DNA from: Squalus acanthias
Taxonomy: Eukaryota
Length of the DNA: 64,000 bases
Assembly: GCA_030390025.1 (NCBI GenBank)
Contig: CM059431.1
Span: forward strand, 116,562,001 to 116,626,000
Direction of reading: 5' to 3'
In this document: piece by piece, positions 1,480 to 51,226 of the stretch
How the letters are laid out: the number at the start of each line of letters is the position of its first letter
Position numbering within the stretch: the stretch's first letter is position 1
Notes under the pieces: model-generated
Told to the model about the DNA's origin: nothing
What the model saw: the letters and a program-made list of their open reading frames with translations, nothing else
Database searches by the model: none
Translations under genes and position numbers: made by a program

Positions 1480-3518
1480 TACTAAAGAAAACAAAGGCTG
1501 CTATTAGATCAGCAAAAAGGCTAATGGAAAAAATGATCGCCGACAACTGTGGAAGTAATGGGAAAAGCTTTTTCAGTTATGCTTGGAGTCAGAGAACTGT
1601 CAATGACTGTATTGGACCATTGAAGCATGTTCAAGGATAGGTTACAAAGGACTCACTGGGTATGGCGGAAATATTAAATGAATACTTTGCATCGGTCTTC
1701 ACCCTTGAAGATGATGCTTGACTATTAGAATTTAATAATGTTACTAACAAAACTAGTAATATTAACATAGATGAACATATTGTTTTAGAAAGAATTAAGA
1801 AATTGATGATATCCACCCAAAGGTCCTCGGGGAGAAGGGACATGTGCTGTGTGAGCCCCTAGCCTGTATTTTTAATAGCTCACTGCACTCTGGAATAGTT
1901 CCTATAGACTGGAAGGAGGCTAATGTAGTCCCCATCTTTAAAAAAGGTGACAAGACAAACCCAGGTAACTATAGGCCCATTAGTTTAACATCAGTAATAG
2001 GTAAGATGCTTGAGGGAATTATTAGGGATGCAATATATGTATGCTTGGATAGAGAGGGACATATTAGGAACACCCAACATGGCTTCATACAAAGGAGGTC
2101 ATGTCTTACAAATCTAATTATATTTTTTGAAGAAGTTACAAAATTGGTGGATGAGGGAAGTCCAAGTAAACATTGTCTACTTAGACTTCCAAAAAGCTTT
2201 TGATAAGGTACCGCATAAGAGGCTTCTCTATAAGATCGAAGCCTCTGGTATTAGTGGTAATATATTGAGCTGGATTCAGAACAGGCTGGCAGGACGTAGG
2301 CAAAAAGTAGTTATAGATGGATTTGGATCTGTTTGGAGAACGGTCACCAGTGGTGTCCCGCAGGGATTGGTGTTGGGACCGTTACTCTTTGCTATTTTTA
2401 TTAATGATCTGGATGTAGGTGTTGGGGGCACGATCTGCAAATTTGCAGATGATACCAAGATCTGTGTGAGTATTAGGACTGTAGACGACGCTCATCTGCT
2501 TCAGGCAGATCTTAATGTGTTGGGAGATTGGGCTCATGACTGGCAAATGATGTATAACTTAGATAAGTGCAGTGTTATGAATGTGGACAGGGAAAATGCT
2601 CAACATTCATACACCTTTCAGGGAAAAACATTAAAATAAGGTGGAGATAGAAAGAGATTTGGGCATTCTAGTGCATCTTTAAAGGTACGTGAGCAATGCT
2701 GTGAAGTGATAGCTGGAGCAAATAGGGTGTTTGGGTGTATCCATAGGACAATTGAGTATAAGACGAGACATACTGGTTTTTGTCCTTGTACAAGACCTTA
2801 GTCAGGCCGCACTTGGGAAACTGTGTCCAGTTTTGGTCACCTGACATGGTGGGTGATTATTGAGGCTTTGGAGAGGGTGCAGAGGAGGGCCACTAGACTA
2901 ATTCCCAGTCTAAAGCATCTTGGTTATCAAGATAGGCTAAAAGAGTTGGGACTCTGCACTTTAGAGAAACGTAGACTTAGGGGTGATCTGATTGAGGTTT
3001 ATAAAATAATGAAGGGAATAGATTGTGTTCCAGTTGACAGTTTGTTTCAATGAAATAGGCTAGGGAGGACCAGGGGTCACAAATGTAAGTTGTATAAGGC
3101 CAGATCTAGGTTAGCTGTCAGGAGGTGGTTCTTTTCCCAGAGAATAGGGGACCTCTGGAACAGGCTGTCGTCTCAAGCAGTGGATGCTGATTCACTGAAT
3201 TCCTTCAAGCGAGAGCTGGACCTGTTTGTGGCTGGGGCGGAGATCACCTCTTACAGAAGGTAAGTACTACAGGGAATTCAGGACCAGAGTGATCTCGTGG
3301 ACTAGTTTTAATCGCCTAGATGGGTCGGAGAGGAATTTCCCAGATTTTTCCCGCAAATTGGCCTTGGTTTTTTACCTGATTTTTTTGCCAGGAAATCACA
3401 TGGTTTCGGGTGGGGTGGTGTGTATATATTGTGATACACAAGATACCGCAATTGTGTGGGACATGCTCGATGGACCAGAGGGTCTTTACCTGCCCGTCAT
3501 TTTTCGTATGTTTGTAAT
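1480..3518 (+). mobile_element. 5'-truncated CR1 LINE, RT pseudogene
   Basis: ORFs 1844-2203, 2127-2639 and 2823-3053 carry CR1 RT motifs ([48 protein letters not shown]) with frameshifts. Confidence 0.95.
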
Positions 3519-19794: not shown

Positions 19795-21502
19795 GTGTCA
19801 TCCATGGCTCAGTGTTAACACTCTCGCCTGAGTCAGAAGGTTGTGGGTTCAAGTCCCACTCCAGAAACTTGAGCACATAAACCTGGCTGACACCAATAAC
19901 CTGCTCATTGATGCCCAGTTTGGGTTCCGCCAGGACCACTCGGCTCCCGACCTCATTTCAGCTTTGGTTCAAATATGGACAAAGGAGCTGAATTCCAGAG
20001 GTGAGGTGAGAGTGACTGCCCTTGACATCAAGGCAGCATTTGACTGAGTGTGGCATCAAGGAGCCCTAGTAAAACTGAAGTCAATGGGAATCAGGTGGAA
20101 AACGCTCCACTGACTGGAGTTATACCTAGCACAAAGGAAGATGGTTGTGGTTGTTGGAGGTCAATCATCACAGCCCCAGGACATCGCTGCAGGAGTTCCT
20201 CGGGGCAGTGTCCTAGGCCCAACCATCTTCAGCTGCTTCATCAATGACCTTCCCTCCAACATAAGGTCAGAAATGGGGATGTTCGTTGATGACTGCACAG
20301 TGTTCAGCGCTATTCACAGCTCCTCAGATAATGAAGAAGTCCATGCCCGCATGCAACAAGACCTGGATGACGTTTAGGCTCGGGCTGATAAGTGGCAGGT
20401 AACATTCGCGCCACAGAGGTGCCAGGCAATGACTATCTCCAACAAGCGAGAGTCTAACCACCTCCCGCTTACATTCAACGGCATTACCATCGCCGAATCC
20501 CCCACCATCAACATCCTGGGGGTCACCATTGACCCGAAACTTAATTGGACCAGCCACATAAATACTGTGGCAAAAAGAGCAGGTCAGAGGCTAGGTATTC
20601 TGCAGCGAGTGTCTCACCTACTGACTCCCCAAAGCCTTTCCACCATCTACAAGGCACAAGTAAGGAGTGTGATGGAATACTCTCCACTTGCCTGGATGAG
20701 TGCAGCTGCAACAACACTCAAGAAGCTCGACACCATCAAGGACAAAGCAGCCCGTTTGATTGGCACCCCATCCACCACCTTAAACATTTACTCCCTCCAC
20801 CACCGGCGTACCGTGGCTGCAGTGTGTACCATCTACAAGATGCACTGCAGCAACTCGCCAAGGCTTCTTCGGCAGCTCCTCCCAAACCCGCGACCTCTTC
20901 CACCAAGAAGGACAAGGGCAGCAGGCGCATGAGAACACCACCACCTCCAAGTTCCCCTCCAAGTCACACACCATCCTGACTTAGAAGTATATCGCCATTC
21001 CTTCATCGTCGCTGGGTCAAAATCCTGGAACTCCCTCCCTAACAGCACTGTGGGAGTACCTTTACCACACGGACTGCTGCGGTTCAAGAAGGCGGCTCAC
21101 CACCACCTTCTCAAGGGCAACTAGGGATGGGCAATAAATGCTGGCCTTGCCAGCGACGCCCAGATCCCATAAGCGATTTAAAAACAAACTTCAGTGCAGC
21201 ACTGAGGGAATGCTGCACTGTCATAGCTGCCATCTTTGGGATGAGACATTAAAGTGAGGTCCAGTCTGCCTTCTTGGATGGACGTAAAAAATTCCATGGC
21301 AGCGTTTTGAAGAAGAGCAGGGGATTTCTCCCTGGTGTCCTGGCCTATATTTATCCCTCAACCAACATTTCTAAAAAACAGATTATCTGGTCATTTTCTC
21401 ATTGTGGTTTGTGGGTCCTCTGTGTGTAACTGGCTGGTGCGTTTCCTGCATTACAACAATGACTACACTTCAAAAGTACTTCATTAGCTGCAAAGCGCTT
21501 TC
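19795..21502 (+). mobile_element. DeuSINE (SacSINE1-like), split by a LINE insertion at 19892-21188
   Basis: tRNA head (tggctcagtg, ggttcaagtcc) at 19795-19891. The Deu-like body (gccatctttgggatgagacattaaa) and L2-type tail resume at 21190. Confidence 0.85.
19892..21188 (+). mobile_element. 5'-truncated copy of the tRNA-headed CR1/L2-group LINE
   Basis: RT motifs ALDIKAAFD, GVPRGSVLGP, IYKAQVRSVMEY; 3' end gggatgggcaataaatgctggcc; highly similar to 35770-37060. Confidence 0.95.
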
Positions 21503-25116: not shown

Positions 25117-26402
25117 CCTGCTCACTGATGCCCAGTTTGGGTTCCGCCAGGACCACTCGGCTCCCGACCTCATTACAGCCTTGGTCCAAACATGGACAAA
25201 GAAGCTGAATTCCAGAGGTGAGGTGACAGTGACTGCCCTTGACATCAAGGCAGCATTTGACCGAGTGTAGCATCAAGGAGCCCTAGTAAACTGAAGTCAA
25301 TGGGAATCGGGGGGAAAACGTTCCACTGGCTGGAGTCATACCTAGCACAAAGGAAGATGGTTGTGGTGGTTGAAGGTCAATCATCACAGCCACAGGACAT
25401 CGCTGCAGGAGTTCCTCAGGGCAGTGTCCTAGGCCCAAACATCTTCAGCTGCTTCATCAATGACCTTCCCTCCAACATAAGGTCAGAAATGGGGATGTCC
25501 GCTGATGACTGCAGAGTGTTCAGCACCATTCACAACTTCTCAGATAATGAAGCAGTCCATGCCCGCATGCAACAAGACCTGGACGACGTTCAGGCTTGGG
25601 CTGATAAGTGGCAGCTAACATTAGCGCCACAGAAATGCCAGGCAATGACTATCGCCAACAAGCGAGAGTCTAACCACCTCCCCTTGACATTCAACGGCAT
25701 TACCATCGCCGAATCCCCCGACATCAACATCCTGCTGGTCACCATTGACCAGAAACTTAACTGGACCAGCCACATAAATACTGTGGCAACAAGAGCTGGT
25801 GAGAGGCTAGGTGTTCTGCTGCGAGTATCTCACCTCCTGACTCCCCAAAGCCTTTCCACCATCTACAATGCACAAGTAAGGAGTGTGATGGAATACTCTC
25901 CACTTGCCTGGATGAGTGCAGCTCCAACAGCACTCAAGAAGCTCGACACTATCCATGACAAAGCAGCCCGCTTGATTGGCACCCCATCCACCACCTTAAA
26001 CATTCACTCCCTCCACCACCGGCGTACCGTGGCTGCTGTGTGTACCATCTATAAGATGCACTGCAACAACTCGCCAAGGCTTCTTCGGCAGCACCTCCCA
26101 AACCCATGACCTCTTCCACCTAGAAGGACAAGGGCAGCAGGCGCATGGGAACACCACCACCTCCAAGTTCCCCTCCAAGTCACACACCATCCCGACTTGG
26201 AAGTTTATCACTGATCCTTCATCATCGCTGGGTCAAAATCCTGGAACTCCCTCCCTAACAGCACTGTGCGAGTACCTTCACCACACGGACTGCAGCGGTT
26301 CAAGAAGGCAGCTCACCACCACCTTCTGAAGGGCAATTAGGGATGGGCAATAAATGCTGGCCTTGCCAGCGACGCCCACATCCCATAAACAAATTTTAAA
26401 AA
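25117..26402 (+). mobile_element. 5'-truncated copy of the tRNA-headed CR1/L2-group LINE
   Basis: ORF 25300-26109 (269 aa) with RT motifs; same 3' end as 36990-37050. Confidence 0.95.
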
Positions 26403-27268
26403 ACACATTTTCCTGGGACTTTTGCACCGCCCTGCTGTTACTTTTGCCAAAAACAGTTAGAAGGTAATTATCATAGCCCTGCCCCATTAAAGCTAATGGT
26501 GGTAGCGATTTTCCTGCATTTAAGCCAGTTTTCACACCACTACCACTTAGACTGCAAAAAAAGGCGGTGCTGGTGGCCAGGCCGTGGCGTGATTAATTGA
26601 CTGAAAGGAAAATGCTTTTACCATTTATTTAGTGGAAAAGCCAATTGCGTGTGAAGTTAAATTCAGAAAAAGCGGGAACTTGGACTGTCCATGTTAGAAA
26701 GGAGTGGATCCATCACCGATGAAAGCTCGCTGTTGGATTAGGATTTTTAATGTGTAATCGCTTCTCCGAGCAAACTACTGGAAATGGTTCCAATAATGTG
26801 CATGGTTAACTAGCTGGTTGCAAGGGCACATATTACACTACAGTAAATTATTTGGATTATATAACATGGATTTAGAATTTCAAGTTTAAATGTTCGCTCT
26901 TTCGACATGCTTTGCTGAATTGAATCTGTTTGCACCATACAGCCACCAGACTGCAAGTTCTGTAAGGATAGTAGCAAACAAATGAAATGAATCCTTTCAA
27001 TTTATCCCGATTAAATTTTAATGAGAAACATCATCTGATTTAATATAAGGGTAGATAAAGTCAGTGAAGTACAGAGGTTCTTAGACAGATGCATATTACG
27101 GGTGTCCATAGTAAATGATAAACAATCTATGTCTGCAAATAGTCATTGGCTTTGCCGCTTCTGGTTCACCGCTCGCTGTGGCATATCCTAATTAGAAAAG
27201 CAGCAAAATTTGGGGTAAGTTTAGAATGCCAAGACAGGTGTACTAGACGGCAAACTTTACATCACTAA

Positions 27269-33756: not shown

Positions 33757-36700
33757 GGAGCAGTAGCGTAGTGGTAATGTCACTGGACTAGTAATCCAGG
33801 GGCCTGGACTAATGATCTCAGCGACGTGAGTTCAAATCCCACCATGGCAGCTGGGGAATTTAAATTCAGTTAATTAAGTTTTAAAAATTCTGGAATAAAA
33901 AAAAGCTAGTATCAGTAATGGTAACCATGAAACTATCGATTGTCGTAAAAACCTATCTGGTTCATTAATGTCCTTTAGGGATGGAAATCTGCCGTCCTTA
34001 CCTGATCTGGCCTATATGTGACTCCAGACCCACAGCAATGTGGTTGACTCTTAACTGCCCTCTGAAATGGCCTAGCAAGTCATTCAGTTGTAACTAACCG
34101 CTACGAAACATAATAAGAATGAAACCGGACAGACCACCCAGCATCGACCTCAGCACCGGACACGGCAACGGCATACCCAGCCAAGTCGACCCTGTAAAGT
34201 CCTCCTCATCAACATCTAGGGACTTGTGCCAAAATTGGGAGAGCTGTCCCACAGACTAGTCAAGCAACAGCCTGACATAATCATACTCACAGAATCATAC
34301 CTTTCAGCCAATGTCCCAAACTCCTCCATCACCATCCCTGGGTATGTCCTGTCCCACTGGCAGGACAGACCCACCAGGAGTGGCGGCACAGTGGTATACA
34401 GTCGGGAACGAGTGTCCCTGGGAGTCCTCAACATTAACTCCGGACCCCATGATGTCTCATGGCTTGAGGTCAAGCATGGGCAAGGAAACCTCCTGCTGAT
34501 TACCAACTACCGCCCTTCCTCAGCTGATGCATCAGTACTCCTCCATGTTGAACACCACTTGGAAGAAACACTGAGAGTAGCAAGGGCACAGAATGTGCTC
34601 TGGGTGGGGTACTTCAATGTCCATCACCAAGAGTGGCTCGGTAGCAATCCTACTGACCGAGCTGGCCAAGTCCTGAAGGACAATAACTGCCAGTCTGGCC
34701 TGCGACAGGTGGTGAGAGAACCAATGCGAGGGAAAAACATACTTGACCTTGTCCTCACCAATCTACCTGTCGCAGATGCATCTGTCCATGACAGTATCGG
34801 TAGCAGTGACCACCGCACAGTCATTGTGGAGACGAAGTCCCATCTTGGAGGACACTGAGGACACCCTCCATCGTGTTGTGTGGCACTACCACAGTGCTAA
34901 ATGGGATAGATTCAGAACAGATCTAGCAGCTCAAAACTGGGCATCTATGAGGCGGGCCATCAGCAGCAGAATTGTATTCCACCACAATCTGTTACCGCAT
35001 GGCCCGGCATATCCCTCACTCTAACATTACCACCAAGCCAGGGGACAAACCCTGGTTCAATAAGTAGTGTAGAAGCGCATGCCAGGAGCAGCACCAGGCA
35101 TACATAAAAATGAGGTGCCAACCTGCGGAAGCTGCAACAGAGGACTACATGCATGCTAAAAAGCGGAAGCAGCATGCCATAGACAGGGCTAAGCGATCCC
35201 ACAATCAACGGATCAGATCAAAGCTCTGCAGTCCTGCCACATCCAGTCGTGAACGGTGGTGGACCATTAAACAACTAACGGGAGGAGGAGGCTCCATGAA
35301 TATTCCCATCCTCAATGATGGTGGAGTCGAGCACATGAGTGCAAAAGACAAGTCTGAAGCGTTTACAACCATCTTCAGCCAGAAGTTCCGAGTGGGTGAT
35401 CCATATCGGCCTACTCCTGAGGTCCGCACCATCACAGAAGCCAGTCTTCAGCCAATTCGATTCACTCCACGTGATATCAAGAAACGGCTGAGCGCACTGG
35501 ATACAGCAAAGGCTATGGGCCCCGACAACATCCCGGCTATCGTGCTTAACACTTGTGCTCCAGAACTAGCCGTGCCTCTAGCCAAGCTGTTCCAGTTCAG
35601 CTACAACACCGGCATCTATCCGACAATGTGGAAAACTGCCCAGGTATGTCCTGTCCACAAAGAGCAGGACAAATCCAACCTGGCCAATTACCGCCCCATC
35701 AGTCTACTCTCAATCATCAGCAAAGTGATGGAAGTTGTCATCGACAGTGCTATCAAGCGGCACTTACTCACCAAAAACCTGCTCACTGATGCCCAGTTTG
35801 GGTTCCGCCAAGACCACTCAGCTCCCGACCTTATTACAGCCTTGGTCCAAACATGGACAAAGGAGCTGAATTCCAGAGGTGAGGTGAGAGTGACTGCCCT
35901 TGACATCAAGGCAGCATTTGACCGAGTGTGGCATCAAGGAGCCCTAGTAAAACTGAAGTCAATGGGAATCGGGGGGAAAACGCTCCACTGGCTTGAGTCA
36001 TACCTAGCACAAAGGAAGATGGTTGTGGTGGTTGAAGGTCAATCATCACAGCCCCAGGACATCGCTGCAGGAGTTCCTCAGGGCAGTGTCCTAGGCCCAA
36101 CTATCTTCAGCTGCTTCATCAATGACCTTCCCTTCAACATAAGGTCAGAAATGGGGATGTTCGCTGATTACTGCACAGTGTTCAGTGCCATTCACAACTC
36201 CTCAGATAATTAACCAGTCCATGCACGCATGCAACAAGACCTGGACGACGTTCAGGCTTGGGCTGATAAGTGGCAGGTAACATTCGCGCCACAGAAGTGC
36301 CAGGCAATGACTATCTCTAACAAACGGGAGTCTAACCACATCCCCTTGACATTCAACAGCATTACCATCGCCGAATCCCCCACCATCAACATCCTGGGGG
36401 GTCACCATGGATCAGAAACTTAACTGGACCAGCCACATAAATACTGTGGCAACAAGAGCAGGTCAGAGGCTAGGTATTCTGCAGCGAGTGTCTCACCTAC
36501 TGACTCCCCAAAGCCTTTCCACCATCTACAAGGCACAAGTAAGGAGTGTGATGGAATACTCTCCACTTGCCTGGATGAGTGCAGCTCCAACAACACTCAA
36601 GAAGCTCGACTCCATCCAAGACAAAGCAGCCCGCTTGATTAGCACCCCATCCACCACCTTAAACATTCATTCCCTCCACCACGGTGTACCGTAGCTGCAG

Positions 36701-37068
36701 TGTGTACCATCTACAAGATGCACTGCAGCAACTCACCAAGGCTTCTTCGGCAGCACCTCCCAAACCCGCAACCTCTTCCACCTAGAAGGACAAGGGCAGA
36801 AGGCACATGGGAACACCACCACCTCCAAGTTCCCCTCTAAGTCACACACCATCCTGACTTAGAAGTATATCGCCGTTCCTTCATCGTCGCTGGGTCAAAA
36901 TCCTGGAACTCCCTACCTAACAGCACTGTGGGAGTACCTTCATCACACGGACTGCAGCAGTTTAAGGAGGCAGCTCACCACCACCTTCTCAAGGGCAATT
37001 AGGGATGGGCAATAAATGCTTGCCTTGCCAGCGACGCCCACATCCCACAAACTAATTAAAAAAAAAAA
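33757..37068 (+). mobile_element. Apparently full-length single-ORF (APE endonuclease + RT) CR1/L2-group LINE with a tRNA-derived 5' head; pseudogenised
   Basis: A box TAGCGTAGTGG at 33764-33774 and B box GAGTTCAAATCC at 33828-33839. APE motifs (NIxGL, LTES, G.FN.H, LDL, SDH) at 34199-34858. RT motifs (NYRPISLLS, QFGFR, DIKAAFD, GVPQGSVLGP, FAD) at 35110-36213. Ends in an A-rich tail. Confidence 0.9.
33764..33839 (+). promoter_or_regulatory. Type-2 RNA polymerase III internal promoter (A and B boxes)
   Basis: Close matches to TRGCNNAGTGG and GWTCRANNC with tRNA/SINE-like spacing. Confidence 0.75.
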
Positions 37069-37369
37069 ATATTCAATTAGACTGTTATTTCAACTCACTT
37101 TTGAGTTTAACGTCTCATCCATGGATTTCCCGGGCTTCCTAAAACTCACCAGTGAAAGCAAGGCAAGAACACAGTGGCAATTGAGGGGGTCAATCAATCT
37201 CAGGGCAATATGGCAATAAATACTCAGTACTCACAGCTGCTTTCTTACCTGCTAGTGGGAAAGGGTTTGTCCACAGTACTTTTGCTGAAAATTGACTATC
37301 TACATGTTGCAGGTTTTTTCCATCCTTTGGAAGTTTGATCTACACTTTGGAGGTTTGTTCTATCACAGC

Positions 37370-40457: not shown

Positions 40458-42040
40458 TAAGAACATAAGAAACAGAAGCAGGAGTAGGCCAATCGGCCCC
40501 TCGAGCCTGCTCCACCATTCAATAAGATCATGGCTGATCCAATCTTGGCCTCAACACCACTTTCTCGCTCTCTCCCCAAACCCCTTGACTCCCTTGTAGT
40601 TCAAATATCTGTCAATCTCCGCCTTGAATATATTCAATGACTCCAACTCCACAGCTCTCTGGGATAGAGAATTCCAAAGATTCACGACCCTCTGAGAGAA
40701 GAAATTCCTCCTCATCTCCGTCTTAAATGGGCGATCCCTTATTCTGTAACTATGCCCTTAGTTCTAGATACCCCCACTAGGGGAAACATCCTCTCAGCAT
40801 CCACCCTGTCAATCCCCCTCAGAATCTTATATGTTTCAATAAGATCACCTCTCATTCTTCTAAAATCCAATGAGTATAGGCCCAATCTGCTCAACCTTTC
40901 ATCATACGTCAACCTCTTCATCCCAGGAATCAACCTAGTGAACCTTCTCTGCACTGCCTCCAATGCAAGTATATCCTTCCTTAAATATGGAGACCAAAAC
41001 TGTACGCAGTACTCCAGGTGCAGTCTCACCAGTGCCCTGTAAAGTTGCATCAAAACTTCCCTACTTTTATACTCCATACCCCTTGCAATAAAGGCCAACA
41101 TTCCATTAGCCTTCCTAATTACTTGCTGTACCTGCATGCTAACTTTTTGTGTTTCATGCACTAGGACCCCCAGATCTCTTTGTACCGCAGTATTTTGTAA
41201 TCTCTCTCCATTTAAATAATAATTTGCTTTTTCATTCTTCCTTCCAAAGTGGATAACCTCACATTTTCTCACATTATACTCCATCTGCCAAATTTTTGCC
41301 CACTCACTTAACCTATCTATATCCCTTTGCAGACTCTTTGTGTCCTCCTCACAACTTGCTAACCCACCTATCTTTGTATCATCAGCAAATTTGGCTACAG
41401 TACATTCGGTCCCTTCATCCAAGTCATTAATATAGATTGTGAGGCCCCAGCACTGATCCCTGTGGCACCCCACTAGTTACTGATTGCCAACCGGAAAATG
41501 ACCCATTTATCCCGACTTTCTGTTTTCTGTTAGTTAGCCAATCCCCTATCCATGCCAATATATTACCCCCAACCCCGTGCGCTCTTATCTTTAAAGTAAC
41601 CTTTTATGTGGCACCTTATTGAATGCCTTCTGGAAATCCAAATACACTACATCTACTGGTTCCCCTTTATCCACCCTGTTTGTTACATCCTCAAAGAACT
41701 CTAGCAAATTTGTCAAACACTATTTCCCTTTCATAAAACCATGTTGACTCTGCTTGATTGTCTTATGATATTTTAAATGTCCTGCAATTACCTCTTTAAT
41801 AATGGATTCCAGCATTTTCCCAATGACAGATGTTAGGCTAACTGGCCTATAGTTTCCTGCTTTCTGTCTCCCTCCTTTCTTGAATAGTGGCGTTACATTT
41901 GCAGTTTTCCAATCCGCTGGGACCTCTCCAGAATCCAGGGAATTTTGGTAGATTATAACCAACGCATCCACTATCTCTGCACCCACTTCTTTTAAGACCC
42001 TAGGATGCAGGCCATCAGGTCCAGGGGACTTGTCGTCTTT
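40458..42040 (-). mobile_element. CR1 LINE (RT), 5'-truncated
   Basis: ORFs 41720-42070(-) and 40739-41473(-) with KSPGPDG, NYRPVSLTS, FADD; taagaaca tail at 40458. Confidence 0.95.
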
Positions 42041-50222: not shown

Positions 50223-50555
50223 GGGAACAGTAGCATAGTGGTAATGTTACTAGTAATCTGAAGGCAAAAGTTCAATCCCACCATGTGCAACTGGGGAATT
50301 TAAATTCAGTTAATTAAATAAATCTGGAATAAAGGCTAGTATCAATAATGGTGACCATGAAACTACTAGATTGTCATAAAAACCCATCTGTTTCACTAAT
50401 GTCCTTTAGGGAAGGAAATCTGCCATTCTTACCTGCTCTGGCCTATATGTGACTCTTAACAGCCTTCTTAATGGCCTAGCAAGGCAATTAGGGATGGGCA
50501 ATAAAATGCTGGCCTTGCCAGTGACACCCAAATCCCATGAACGATTAAAAGAAAA
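50223..50555 (+). mobile_element. tRNA-derived SINE made of the 5' end and 3' end of the 33757-37068 LINE
   Basis: 50223-50482 is homologous to 33757-34078; 50483-50545 is homologous to 36993-37055. Confidence 0.85.
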
Positions 50556-51226
50556 TACATAAAGCTTATAGCAGAAAAGGTGAGCTAGCAAACCACAAGT
50601 AAAACTGAAAATAAATCTGAAGAACAGAGTATTTTTGAGAACATTTCTAGACAGTAGGAAGTAAAGAATTGTACATCCATGCTGCAATTAAAACACTGAC
50701 CTTCATGCATGTAGAGCAAGCTTCCACGAGGAAGGGTAAAGGTAACTGTCAGCGATGTTATCATATGGATGCTTAATAGACTTGTATTAAATTCTTTATT
50801 ATTTGAATAGAGACTTTGGGTCCAATGTTTATCTCCCTTCTGTAATGTATTATCACATGGTTTGTCAATGTTCTGGCCCAATCTCCGTTGGAAAAATTGC
50901 TTTTTGACGTTCACGAATTACTTTATTTTGAGCTTGAAAATTCTCATCTGTACCTTCGGTCTCAATAATGTTATTGGCCTTAAAAAAATCTCCATCCACT
51001 CAATATAAGAACTGAATGGTTCACGAGCTCGGTCATACATGACGAGGCTTCCGATGAATCACGTAGGCATGGTCATGATTGTCCTGATCCCATCGAACAG
51101 TGACTCAGAACGCTACCTGTGTACCTTAAACTATTCTACTCGAAGGTTGAATACTGTGTCCTTCCAAGATCCCTAAAAATGGCTTTGGGATCCCATCCTG
51201 TTCGCCAAAAATGTAATATATGTGGG

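Follow-up and report, generated by a model that had tools for sequence, protein, structure and literature searches.

LINEs are usually viewed as genes of RNA polymerase II (Pol II), R2 is transcribed by polymerase I, and SINEs are regarded as parasites of polymerase III (Pol III) which borrow only the tail of a LINE. In elasmobranchs, HE1 and HER1 are described as a SINE/LINE pair with a shared 3' tail (PMC3747384). Bipartite non-autonomous LINEs, as well as SINE bodies derived from the 5' regions of LINEs, are presented in Kojima 2018 (PMC5786205), and section 22 of the same paper covers R2, which is co-transcribed with rRNA and carries a 5' ribozyme. The T+ SINEs (B2, Dip, Ves and C) combine AATAAA and an A tail with a Pol III terminator, and polyadenylation of the RNAs that Pol III makes from them is described (PMC8466645, PMC12101331). 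The literature search, with Repbase and Dfam outside its range, yielded no Pol III-transcribed or tRNA-headed autonomous LINE save for a passing remark on RTE-1_DAn.

The window analysed here is a stretch of 64,000 nucleotides of Squalus acanthias (contig CM059431.1, positions 116,562,001 to 116,626,000). The focal element of this window is one decayed copy of an abundant 3.3-kb non-LTR retrotransposon family that encodes an apurinic-type endonuclease (APE) and a reverse transcriptase (RT) and has a SINE-type tRNA-derived head. Judged from its sequence, the whole 3.3-kb element may be copied by RNA polymerase III. The features of the element and of its relatives in the window are the following.

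33757-37069, + strand: non-LTR element (LINE); the A run ends at 37069
33757-33843, + strand: tRNA-derived head, 5' terminus of the family; Rfam tRNA match of 22.6 bits over 33763-33843, below the gathering score
33764-33774, + strand: A-box-like motif TAGCGTAGTGG (TRGCNNANTGG), element position 8
33830-33839, + strand: B-box-like motif GTTCAAATCC (GTTCRANNCC), element position 74
33844-34093, + strand: leader, common to the short SINE-like derivatives up to about 34086
33879-33882, + strand: TTTT private to the focal copy, within a small insertion in the AT-rich linker
34094-37002, + strand: long APE+RT frame, broken by stops and frameshifts; terminal TAG at 37000-37002
34119-34259, + strand: short ATG-initiated ORF, 46 codons in the focal copy, overlapping the start of the long frame
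34241-34822, + strand: apurinic-type endonuclease domain (PF03372 residues 8-198 and PF14529 residues 93-201 of translated 34220-34858)
35671-36192, + strand: reverse transcriptase domain (PF00078, E 5.5e-29, residues 202-375 of translated 35068-36213)
36990-37069, + strand: 3' tail common to the element and the SINE-like derivatives, in which the last codons and the stop are followed by AATAAA (37011-37016), a terminal TT (37056-37057) and A12 (37058-37069)
19891-21188, + strand: 5'-truncated copy of the same family, element positions 2013-3310, 93.6% identity
25117-26403, + strand: 5'-truncated copy of the same family, element positions 2022-3309, 93.6% identity
14837-14977, + strand: short internal fragment of the family, element positions 2637-2777
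50224-50560, + strand: SINE-like short derivative, head and leader fused directly to the 3' tail

The sequence-only reading, in which this element was first proposed as a Pol III-transcribed LINE, had placed it at 33757-37068. The start was correct, and the end had to be shifted by one base because the A run reaches 37069.

The comparison of genomic copies supports the tRNA head as the true 5' terminus of the LINE family, a heritable trait rather than the outcome of a SINE and a LINE meeting by chance. The 40 genome matches scored against the head, leader and endonuclease start (element positions 1-644) were collinear without exception, with identities of 90-92%. From the APE side, 29/29 seeded loci, which were those with given loci among 39 non-self matches, ran upstream into the same leader with their 5' ends at positions 1-409; five of them were clearly full-length and three nearly so. 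Further 18 long copies were found, all with unrelated flanks, and 16 of these started at GGGAAYGGTAGC while the other two were shortened by about 11-21 nt. The check proposed earlier, whether full-length copies share the head at the same junction, was thus answered consistently by the 40/40 matches, the 29/29 loci and the 18 long copies. A chance or recurrent SINE-LINE juxtaposition without a heritable chimera has practically no probability left; nothing was found in its favour, and it is refuted by the identical junction and order in the collinear 40/40 and 29/29 copies with unrelated flanks.

The many copies are dispersed, share one 3' end and are truncated at the 5' side to varying extents, as is characteristic of LINEs. 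The contig depth climbed toward the 3' end, as expected of DNA from a 5'-truncated repeat, and over 33929-34052 it was about 10 times the head depth (four runs of contigs); being DNA-like, this depth does not bear on transcript starts, transcript ends or expression. Target-site duplications beyond chance were not detected, the mean longest shared flank word being 4.47 compared with 4.61 in mismatched pairs. Several LINE clades have no regular target-site duplications, so their absence does not exclude LINE membership.

The statement that the element begins with A and B boxes was confirmed, since both motifs were located at the head and recurred in most of 19 copies. With the commonly used A-box and B-box consensus motifs, the A box was scored at position 8-9 in 14 of the 19 copies and the B box at position 73-74 in 18. 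Two of the five A-box misses were 5'-truncated copies and three were due to point changes. The heads of the family contain an A box at about +8 and a B box downstream at a workable spacing. The Rfam tRNA match to the focal head (E 0.19; gathering score 29) spans model positions 7-64, and the acceptor stem is absent. A duplicated anticodon-arm-like segment is present in the head, and some copies have a single arm; these single-arm heads gave no Rfam tRNA match at E <=1, only unrelated weak matches. ARAGORN reported no tRNA in the window and none in the 6 shark and 80 metagenome loci scanned; as it missed the focal head too, the test was powerless. The predicted folds of the focal, mutated copy were no better than those of shuffled sequences, neither for the head (z -0.32) nor for the 3' tail (z -1.22).

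These properties of the head bear on an alternative in which the element would be read through from a host promoter and its transcript would be processed at the 5' end by RNase P at the tRNA-like structure. Such processing would resemble the way in which ribozymes form the 5' ends of R2 and some RTE elements. It would account for the precise 5' termini, and LINE clades with 5' self-cleaving ribozymes are indeed described (Kojima 2018, PMC5786205, section 22). However, the Rfam match lacks the acceptor stem, the head folds no better than shuffles, and the depletion of T runs presented below is left unexplained, which makes RNase P processing very improbable.

The short SINE-like derivatives consist of the head, the leader and the LINE 3' tail, and several internal-deletion breakpoints were found among them. 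The related SINE is an internal-deletion derivative of the LINE. Since the head and start of the SINE and the LINE are identical, the machinery responsible for SINE transcription finds its promoter on the LINE too.

In the relatives from metagenomes, no pair of A and B boxes was detected upstream of the frame (0/80; in about 15 of these the N-terminus is included together with 197 nt or more of upstream sequence; the focal head was the sole positive control of this motif scan). The lack of heads in the relatives indicates that this lineage acquired the head on its own, within a clade whose transcription presumably depends on Pol II. The headless relatives speak against Pol III transcription and for the main competing explanation, which is less probable than Pol III transcription and still carries considerable weight. 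According to it, the family would be a LINE of the usual Pol II type whose 5' UTR comes from a SINE, the head and leader having been gained once by a template switch onto SINE RNA, and its transcripts would be capped. An internal Pol II promoter in the leader or a start-site element would fire from the same first base, and the A and B boxes would be relics or be used by the SINE only. A coincidence is required here, as the Pol II start would have to lie exactly at the tRNA-like +1 which is also used by the SINE.

A count along the sense strand of 33757-37068 gave a single stretch of at least four T (33879-33882), nine of at least three T and fifteen of at least four A. The earlier claim that TTTT is absent from 33883 to about 37060 was therefore right, while the approximate numbers given for TTT (7) and A runs (12) were too low. 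The single T4 was said to sit in an AT-rich linker where the SINE has none, and this was verified: the run is private to the focal copy (1/19), and at this place AAAT-AAATCTGG is found in the other copies and in those of the SINE. The two truncated copies of the window were also claimed to lack TTTT. This was true of 19891-21188 with zero runs, but 25117-26403 has one, at the 3' terminus past the end assigned to it previously. The neighbouring LINE fragments do contain T4 runs, as had been noted, in numbers close to the expectation from composition (4 vs 3.8 and 5 vs 3.7).

Across the family, ancestral runs were gauged from the number of copies sharing each run, without a family consensus; no T4 run, seven TTT runs and 14 A4 runs were shared by at least 10 of the 19 copies. 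Within the unit, no internal terminator of T4 or longer is common to most copies. In comparison with synonymous-codon shuffles over 44,469 in-frame nt, T4 was observed 5 times against 34.7 expected and T3 99 times against 192, whereas A4 reached 181 against 165; the 19 copies share ancestry and count as one evolutionary observation. In single copies, the probability of as few T3 runs as observed was 0/1000 for copies L005 and L015 and 0.004-0.011 for L008, L012 and L009. The absence of T4 alone was not significant, P(0) being 0.06-0.15 under the dinucleotide-preserving null, which already incorporates the scarcity of TT, and 0.05-0.16 with codon shuffles. The strong depletion signal is that of T3 or longer, rather than the absence of T4.

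The control LINEs were free of such depletion. In 36 related open LINE frames, the ratios of observed to expected were 1.00 for T3 and 1.04 for T4, with the lowest T3 ratio at 0.80, and none of 41 relatives was free of T4. Another LINE family of the same genome showed 28 T3 runs vs 28.4 and 8 T4 runs vs 8.5. The data support a depletion of sense-strand T runs, but not of A runs, beyond codon usage, which is absent from the relatives tested. The comparison with codon-shuffled controls thus upheld the depletion as such, and the absence of T4, taken alone, proved weaker than had been claimed. If the family were transcribed by Pol II, the T runs could have been lost through avoidance of U-tract-binding factors or of a cryptic polyadenylation context. 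There is, however, no reason in that explanation for a T-specific and strand-specific depletion that is absent from the 36 relatives and the LINE of the same genome.

The focal translation matched Exo_endo_phos_2 (PF14529) with E 8.7e-10, PF03372 with 1.4e-06 and RVT_1 (PF00078) with the value listed above. Both domains of the single APE+RT frame described initially were thus found, but the frame is interrupted in the focal copy and in all 19 examined, and no intact coding copy was obtained (19/19 disrupted). Two open frames of 926 aa were considered as intact elements and rejected, since one is a truncated copy read through a microsatellite and the other is broken. As to the statement that the element has no ORF1, an ORF1-sized gene is indeed missing, but a short ORF from the ATG at 34119 overlaps the long frame. 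This ATG is kept in 18/19 copies, and the short ORF has 48 codons in 13/19 and 45-50 codons in 16. With respect to the short ORF the long frame is in frame -1, and no ATG is present near its start. The coding capacity with the leader ORF counts in favour of Pol II transcription.

Among 7999 scored candidates, 3670 RT homologues with E <=0.001 were detected, the best being single-ORF proteins of about 960 aa with 37-45% identity. Elements of the RTE clade typically measure about 3.3 kb and have a very short first ORF that overlaps the long one; the length of this family and its 48-codon overlapping ORF fit that description. The C-terminal WNSLP..FK motif, on the other hand, is presumably a sign of the CR1/Jockey group rather than RTE.

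The sole place at which runs of T4 or longer recur is the 3' terminus, ahead of the A tail. They were found in 4/17 ends and, by eye, in 7/39 ends (together 11/56), the rest being T1-T3; the terminal T run ranges from 1 to 9 in length among the copies. That only about one fifth of the 3' ends have T4 or longer speaks against Pol III transcription, as do the long frame without an ATG and the head below the Rfam tRNA threshold. The lengths of the T run and the A tail are inversely related at the 3' ends, which is not predicted by termination followed by polyadenylation. AATAAA and an A tail are also compatible with an ordinary Pol II mRNA and count for a capped transcript; yet AATAAA lies about 45 nt upstream of the tail, which by the usual distance is far for a cleavage signal.

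Transcription by Pol III is the best-fitting mechanism for the family, and on the sequence evidence its chances are about even. In this mechanism, TFIIIC and TFIIIB would bind the head and Pol III would start at the first base of the element, as the anatomy and the identical 5' termini suggest, so that each new copy would carry the promoter along. Pol III would read through the whole 3.3 kb because the sense strand is kept free of T runs; here the depletion is observed and the cause proposed. Transcription would stop at the T run of the 3' end or in the flank, and the A tail would be gained or kept as in T+ SINEs. Speculatively, the uncapped RNA might be translated by way of the 48-codon leader ORF followed by the -1 frame, or else from a non-AUG start. 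The protein of the element would recognise the shared 3' tail and the RNA would be copied into new sites, often with the 5' truncation seen among the copies. Internal deletions keeping the head, leader and tail, with the several breakpoints observed, would give rise to the matching SINE. A 3.3-kb Pol III unit and translation of an uncapped RNA would be unusual, which counts against this mechanism.

The original proposal that selection removed terminators so that Pol III can read the element retains two of its supports, the head as the 5' end and the T-run depletion, whereas the absence of T4 carries less than was assigned to it. The complete scenario appears somewhat less probable than Pol III transcription as such: a vertebrate LINE with a swapped-in tRNA-derived Pol III promoter, whose coding RNA would be made end-to-end by Pol III with T runs purged by selection, a stop at its own T run, a T+ SINE-like A tail and cap-free translation via the 48-codon ORF and the -1 frame, the SINE arising by internal deletion as the short form of the same element. 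In a further alternative, both polymerases would be active: Pol III on every head, giving SINE-like or run-on RNA, and Pol II producing the translated RNA, with T runs purged because the Pol III run-on RNA would be the template of retrotransposition in cis or in trans. It draws on the same evidence as transcription by Pol III alone and in addition avoids the translation problem of uncapped RNA. But this alternative is the more complex one, and the sequence offers no means of telling the two apart; a division of labour between polymerases is considered improbable, though less so than RNase P processing.

If Pol III transcription is true, the family would provide a natural long protein-coding Pol III transcript in a vertebrate, and a LINE could give rise to a SINE directly by deletion instead of the fusion of separate parts. 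It would also represent measurable selection against Pol III terminators inside a gene, a signature with which other genomes could be screened. Even if the family is transcribed by Pol II, the family-wide head and the family-specific T-run depletion would still need explaining.

In comparison with the known systems, the short derivatives match the build of tRNA-derived SINEs (SINE2, e.g. HE1), in which a head bearing A and B boxes is followed by a leader or body and by a LINE-identical 3' tail. HE1 is a V-SINE, and its body probably differs from that of this family. The pairs of SINE2 and partner LINE differ in that here the LINE itself has the head and body at its 5' end; HE1/HER1 were compared by description. 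The bipartite LINEs (PMC5786205) are likewise composed of a LINE 5' part and a 3' part by internal deletion. In the model given there, however, the head is joined to a headless bipartite LINE and the LINE is taken as a Pol II unit, whereas here the full-length coding LINE is already headed. RTE-1_DAn is also a LINE with a tRNA-like sequence, known here from a passing remark about spurious hits; that remark contains no position, promoter claim or terminator analysis, and the comparison is by description only. What the T+ SINEs have in common with this family is AATAAA within the tail and, immediately preceding the 3'-terminal A tail, a T run. As described, they are mammalian, L1-dependent and about 200 nt long, whereas this family is 3.3 kb and coding, with T4 or longer at 11/56 ends and AATAAA about 45 nt upstream. 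R2 and similar elements, according to their description in section 22 of PMC5786205, are LINEs that borrow non-Pol II transcription; R2 is tied to its insertion site, whereas the present family would carry a portable Pol III promoter.

The focal copy, a 3.3-kb LINE with a tRNA-like 5' part (the head), lies in an assembly of 3.7 Gb and 3882 contigs.

Features of the focal copy and of a related short form
33757-37069, + strand: whole element, 3.3 kb
element position 8, + strand: A-box motif match, TAGCGTAGTGG
element position 74, + strand: B-box motif match, GTTCAAATCC
between head and long frame, + strand: leader, about 340 nt
34119-34259: short ATG ORF, 46 codons, overlapping the start of the APE+RT frame
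50224-50560: SINE-like short form, head and leader joined directly to the last ~75 nt of the LINE

The tRNA-like stretch at the element start scored 22.6 bits with Rfam tRNA (E 0.19), under the gathering score of 29, and the ARAGORN scan of the window found no tRNA. A single long frame encodes an apurinic-type endonuclease (PF14529, 8.7e-10) as well as a reverse transcriptase (PF00078, 5.5e-29). The frame is split into pieces in this copy and stops with TAG at 37000-37002; an A12 tail begins 67 nt further on. The layout proposed in the sequence-only reading, A and B boxes at the start, a leader of this length and one APE+RT frame, was thus recovered.

The tRNA-like head is part of the LINE, on three agreeing lines of evidence. 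With element positions 1-644 (head, leader, endonuclease start) as the query, all 40 matches scored of 11,497 first-look candidates were collinear from ≤22 to ≥636, with 90-92% identity. The endonuclease region alone (positions 474-1104) was chosen as a second query to avoid selecting for the head. All 29 matches with loci among its 39 non-self matches extended upstream into the same leader, their 5' ends being spread over positions 1-409. Among 15 of these copies inspected, L045, L050, L055, L047 and L060 had clear full-length heads, L052, L041 and L059 were nearly full-length or rearranged, and the remaining ones were usual 5' truncations with unrelated flanks. Finally, 18 further long copies were rebuilt by joining adjacent loci. 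Twelve aligned collinearly to the focal copy along practically its entire length; L006, L017, L002, L003, L012 and L014 had internal insertions/deletions or 3' truncation. The 5' terminus GGGAAYGGTAGCGTAGTGG was common to 16 of the 18, L012 and L014 being 5'-shortened by ~11 and ~21 nt, and the flanks were unrelated in all 18. The mean pairwise mismatch over the 19 copies (focal plus rebuilt) was 5.4%. Full-length copies thus carry the head at the same junction, and a chance SINE-LINE juxtaposition is refuted by the collinear matches, the endonuclease-seeded copies and the common terminus amid unrelated flanks.

Most LINE heads contain a ~23-nt duplication of an anticodon-arm-like segment (33800-33822); a single arm was seen in some LINE and SINE copies (comparison with L047, L060, L080, L084, L089), with an anticodon loop reading AGT by eye. 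At L013 (rebuilt-stretch positions 19-452, - strand) an older copy of 80% identity has the leader joined to the endonuclease start (element 51-508), which suggests that the headed lineage is far older than the sampled burst.

An ATG at position 347-365 starts a short ORF in 18 of the 19 copies, its length being 48 codons in 13 and 45-50 codons in 16. The absence of ORF1 noted earlier therefore holds for an ORF1-sized gene and not for this short ORF. The long frame opens ~30 nt upstream of the ATG, in the -1 frame relative to the short ORF in 14 of 15 copies scored, and no ATG was found near its start; frameshifting or non-AUG initiation is implied. The long frame was broken in 19/19 copies. 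Two long open frames flagged as candidate intact elements were checked, and neither is an intact element.

The genome search with 50224-50560 returned short head-to-tail forms and matches to head and leader only, the latter probably being LINE 5' ends. Identity to the query was 76-89% at the 11 non-self loci. Breakpoints differed among eight aligned short forms: several joined ...GCCTAGCAAGCCACTCA to AGGGCAATTAGGG, and L084 and L089 retained a larger 3' portion. In contigs from four public runs several distinct joints were seen, each skipping ~2850-2930 nt. The SINE copies are thus internal-deletion derivatives of the LINE, with which they share head, start and tail. In the same contigs the depth over the leader segment 33929-34052 was ~10 times that of the head or of the endonuclease region; this segment probably represents a conserved body domain that also occurs in other SINE families of higher abundance. 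A long inverted repeat in L080 (858-994) matched two plant miRNA families at 47 and 42 bits (gathering scores 135 and 140) and is probably an unrelated hairpin-forming repeat.

Since the internal promoter and the first base are identical in SINE and LINE, Pol III should start on the full-length LINE too. The main rival, possible but doubtful, is a Pol II LINE with an incidentally SINE-derived 5' UTR; it agrees with general knowledge of LINEs and accommodates the translation problem, but requires a coincident start site.

The sense-strand T runs bear on both readings. The focal copy has a single run of four or more T (T4), at 33879, in agreement with the earlier count, and this run is private to it (1/19); nine T3-or-longer and fifteen A4-or-longer runs replace the estimates of ~7 and ~12. 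Eight copies had no T4, seven had one and four had three. No T4 position was common to at least 10 of the 19 copies, compared with 7 TTT and 14 A4 positions, so the family ancestor lacked internal T4. Only two T4 sites recurred, one at 217-220 (3 copies) and the other at the 3' terminus, 3300-3303 (4 copies).

The strength of the depletion depends on the null model chosen. Mononucleotide shuffles gave 3.9-4.8 expected T4; dinucleotide-preserving shuffles gave 1.8-2.5, with P(0) 0.055-0.15, because TT itself is under-represented (0.78). Taken by itself, the lack of T4 is therefore weak evidence. In synonymous-codon shuffles preserving protein and codon usage (44,469 in-frame nt from 19 copies), T4 was observed 5 times vs 34.7 expected and T3 or longer 99 vs 192, whereas A4 reached 181 vs 165. 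The per-copy P(T3 ≤ observed) was 0 of 1000 for L005 and L015, 0.004 for L008, 0.007 for L012, 0.011 for L009 and 0.059 for L007; the focal copy, which is more broken, gave 0.104. The per-copy P(T4 = 0) was 0.05-0.16. Owing to their common ancestry, the 19 copies amount to one evolutionary observation seen through noisy copies. The proposed removal of terminators from the sense strand is thus supported in part by T3/T4 depletion beyond codon shuffles, and weakly by the missing T4.

The same test was applied to 36 related-LINE open frames of ≥800 aa from metagenome contigs (25-49% protein identity). Their T3 and T4 counts were 2699 vs 2695 expected (ratio 1.00) and 1001 vs 958 (1.04); the minimum T3 ratio was 0.80, and P was <0.02 in 2/36. 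None of 41 related coding stretches was without T4 (fewest, 5), and their T content was 0.229-0.351 vs 0.20 in the headed family. A different LINE family in this genome (L212, 2043-nt open frame) had 28 vs 28.4 T3 and 8 vs 8.5 T4, and two further LINE fragments from the window had 4 vs 3.8 and 5 vs 3.7 T4. The depletion is thus T-specific, sense-strand-specific and peculiar to the headed family, and the Pol II rival leaves it without explanation. Fragments of two other LINE families lie at 40742-42031 (-) and 1799-2636 (+); the former family is young and abundant (94-96% identity, 10,695 first-look candidates), with normal T-run content.

Copy ends read ...CCCATAAAC(G/A)AA-T(n)-A(m), with AATAAA ~45 nt upstream of the A tail. 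In 17 complete copies n was 1, 2, 3 and 4 in 4, 4, 5 and 4 copies. In 39 further ends, picked without reference to the terminus and counted by eye, n was 1 in 15, 2 in 10, 3 in 7, 4 in 1, 5 in 3 and 8-9 in 3. T4 or longer recurs solely at the 3' terminus (11/56 ends), where the run length is unusually variable (n 1-9; 56 ends, L004-L020 and L173-L211; window 37056-37069). The A run seems shorter where the T run is longer, n+m being near 10-12.

The sequence-only observation was confirmed and extended, and its interpretation is partly supported. Full-length transcription of the headed LINE by Pol III has, judged from sequence, an even chance of being correct. Pol III would initiate on full-length copies as on the SINE; selection for full-length transcripts would purge T runs in this family specifically and would place the sole recurrent T4 or longer at the end of the unit. 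A mixed model is improbable, and RNase P-type 5' processing is highly improbable. The family merits direct RNA and Pol III assays.

No A+B-box pair was found upstream of the frame in 80 related metagenome loci (~15 with the N-terminus and ≥197 nt upstream), which implies that the head is a lineage-specific gain. [quoted passage not shown] An elasmobranch pair, HE1/HER1, is listed in PMC3747384. The internal-deletion SINE agrees with the bipartite-LINE concept of Kojima 2018 (PMC5786205), but here the full-length LINE itself is already headed. The AATAAA, T(n) and A(m) 3' end recalls the build of T+ SINEs; according to PMC8466645 and PMC12101331, these combine AATAAA with a Pol III terminator and an A tail, and the RNAs that Pol III makes from them are polyadenylated.
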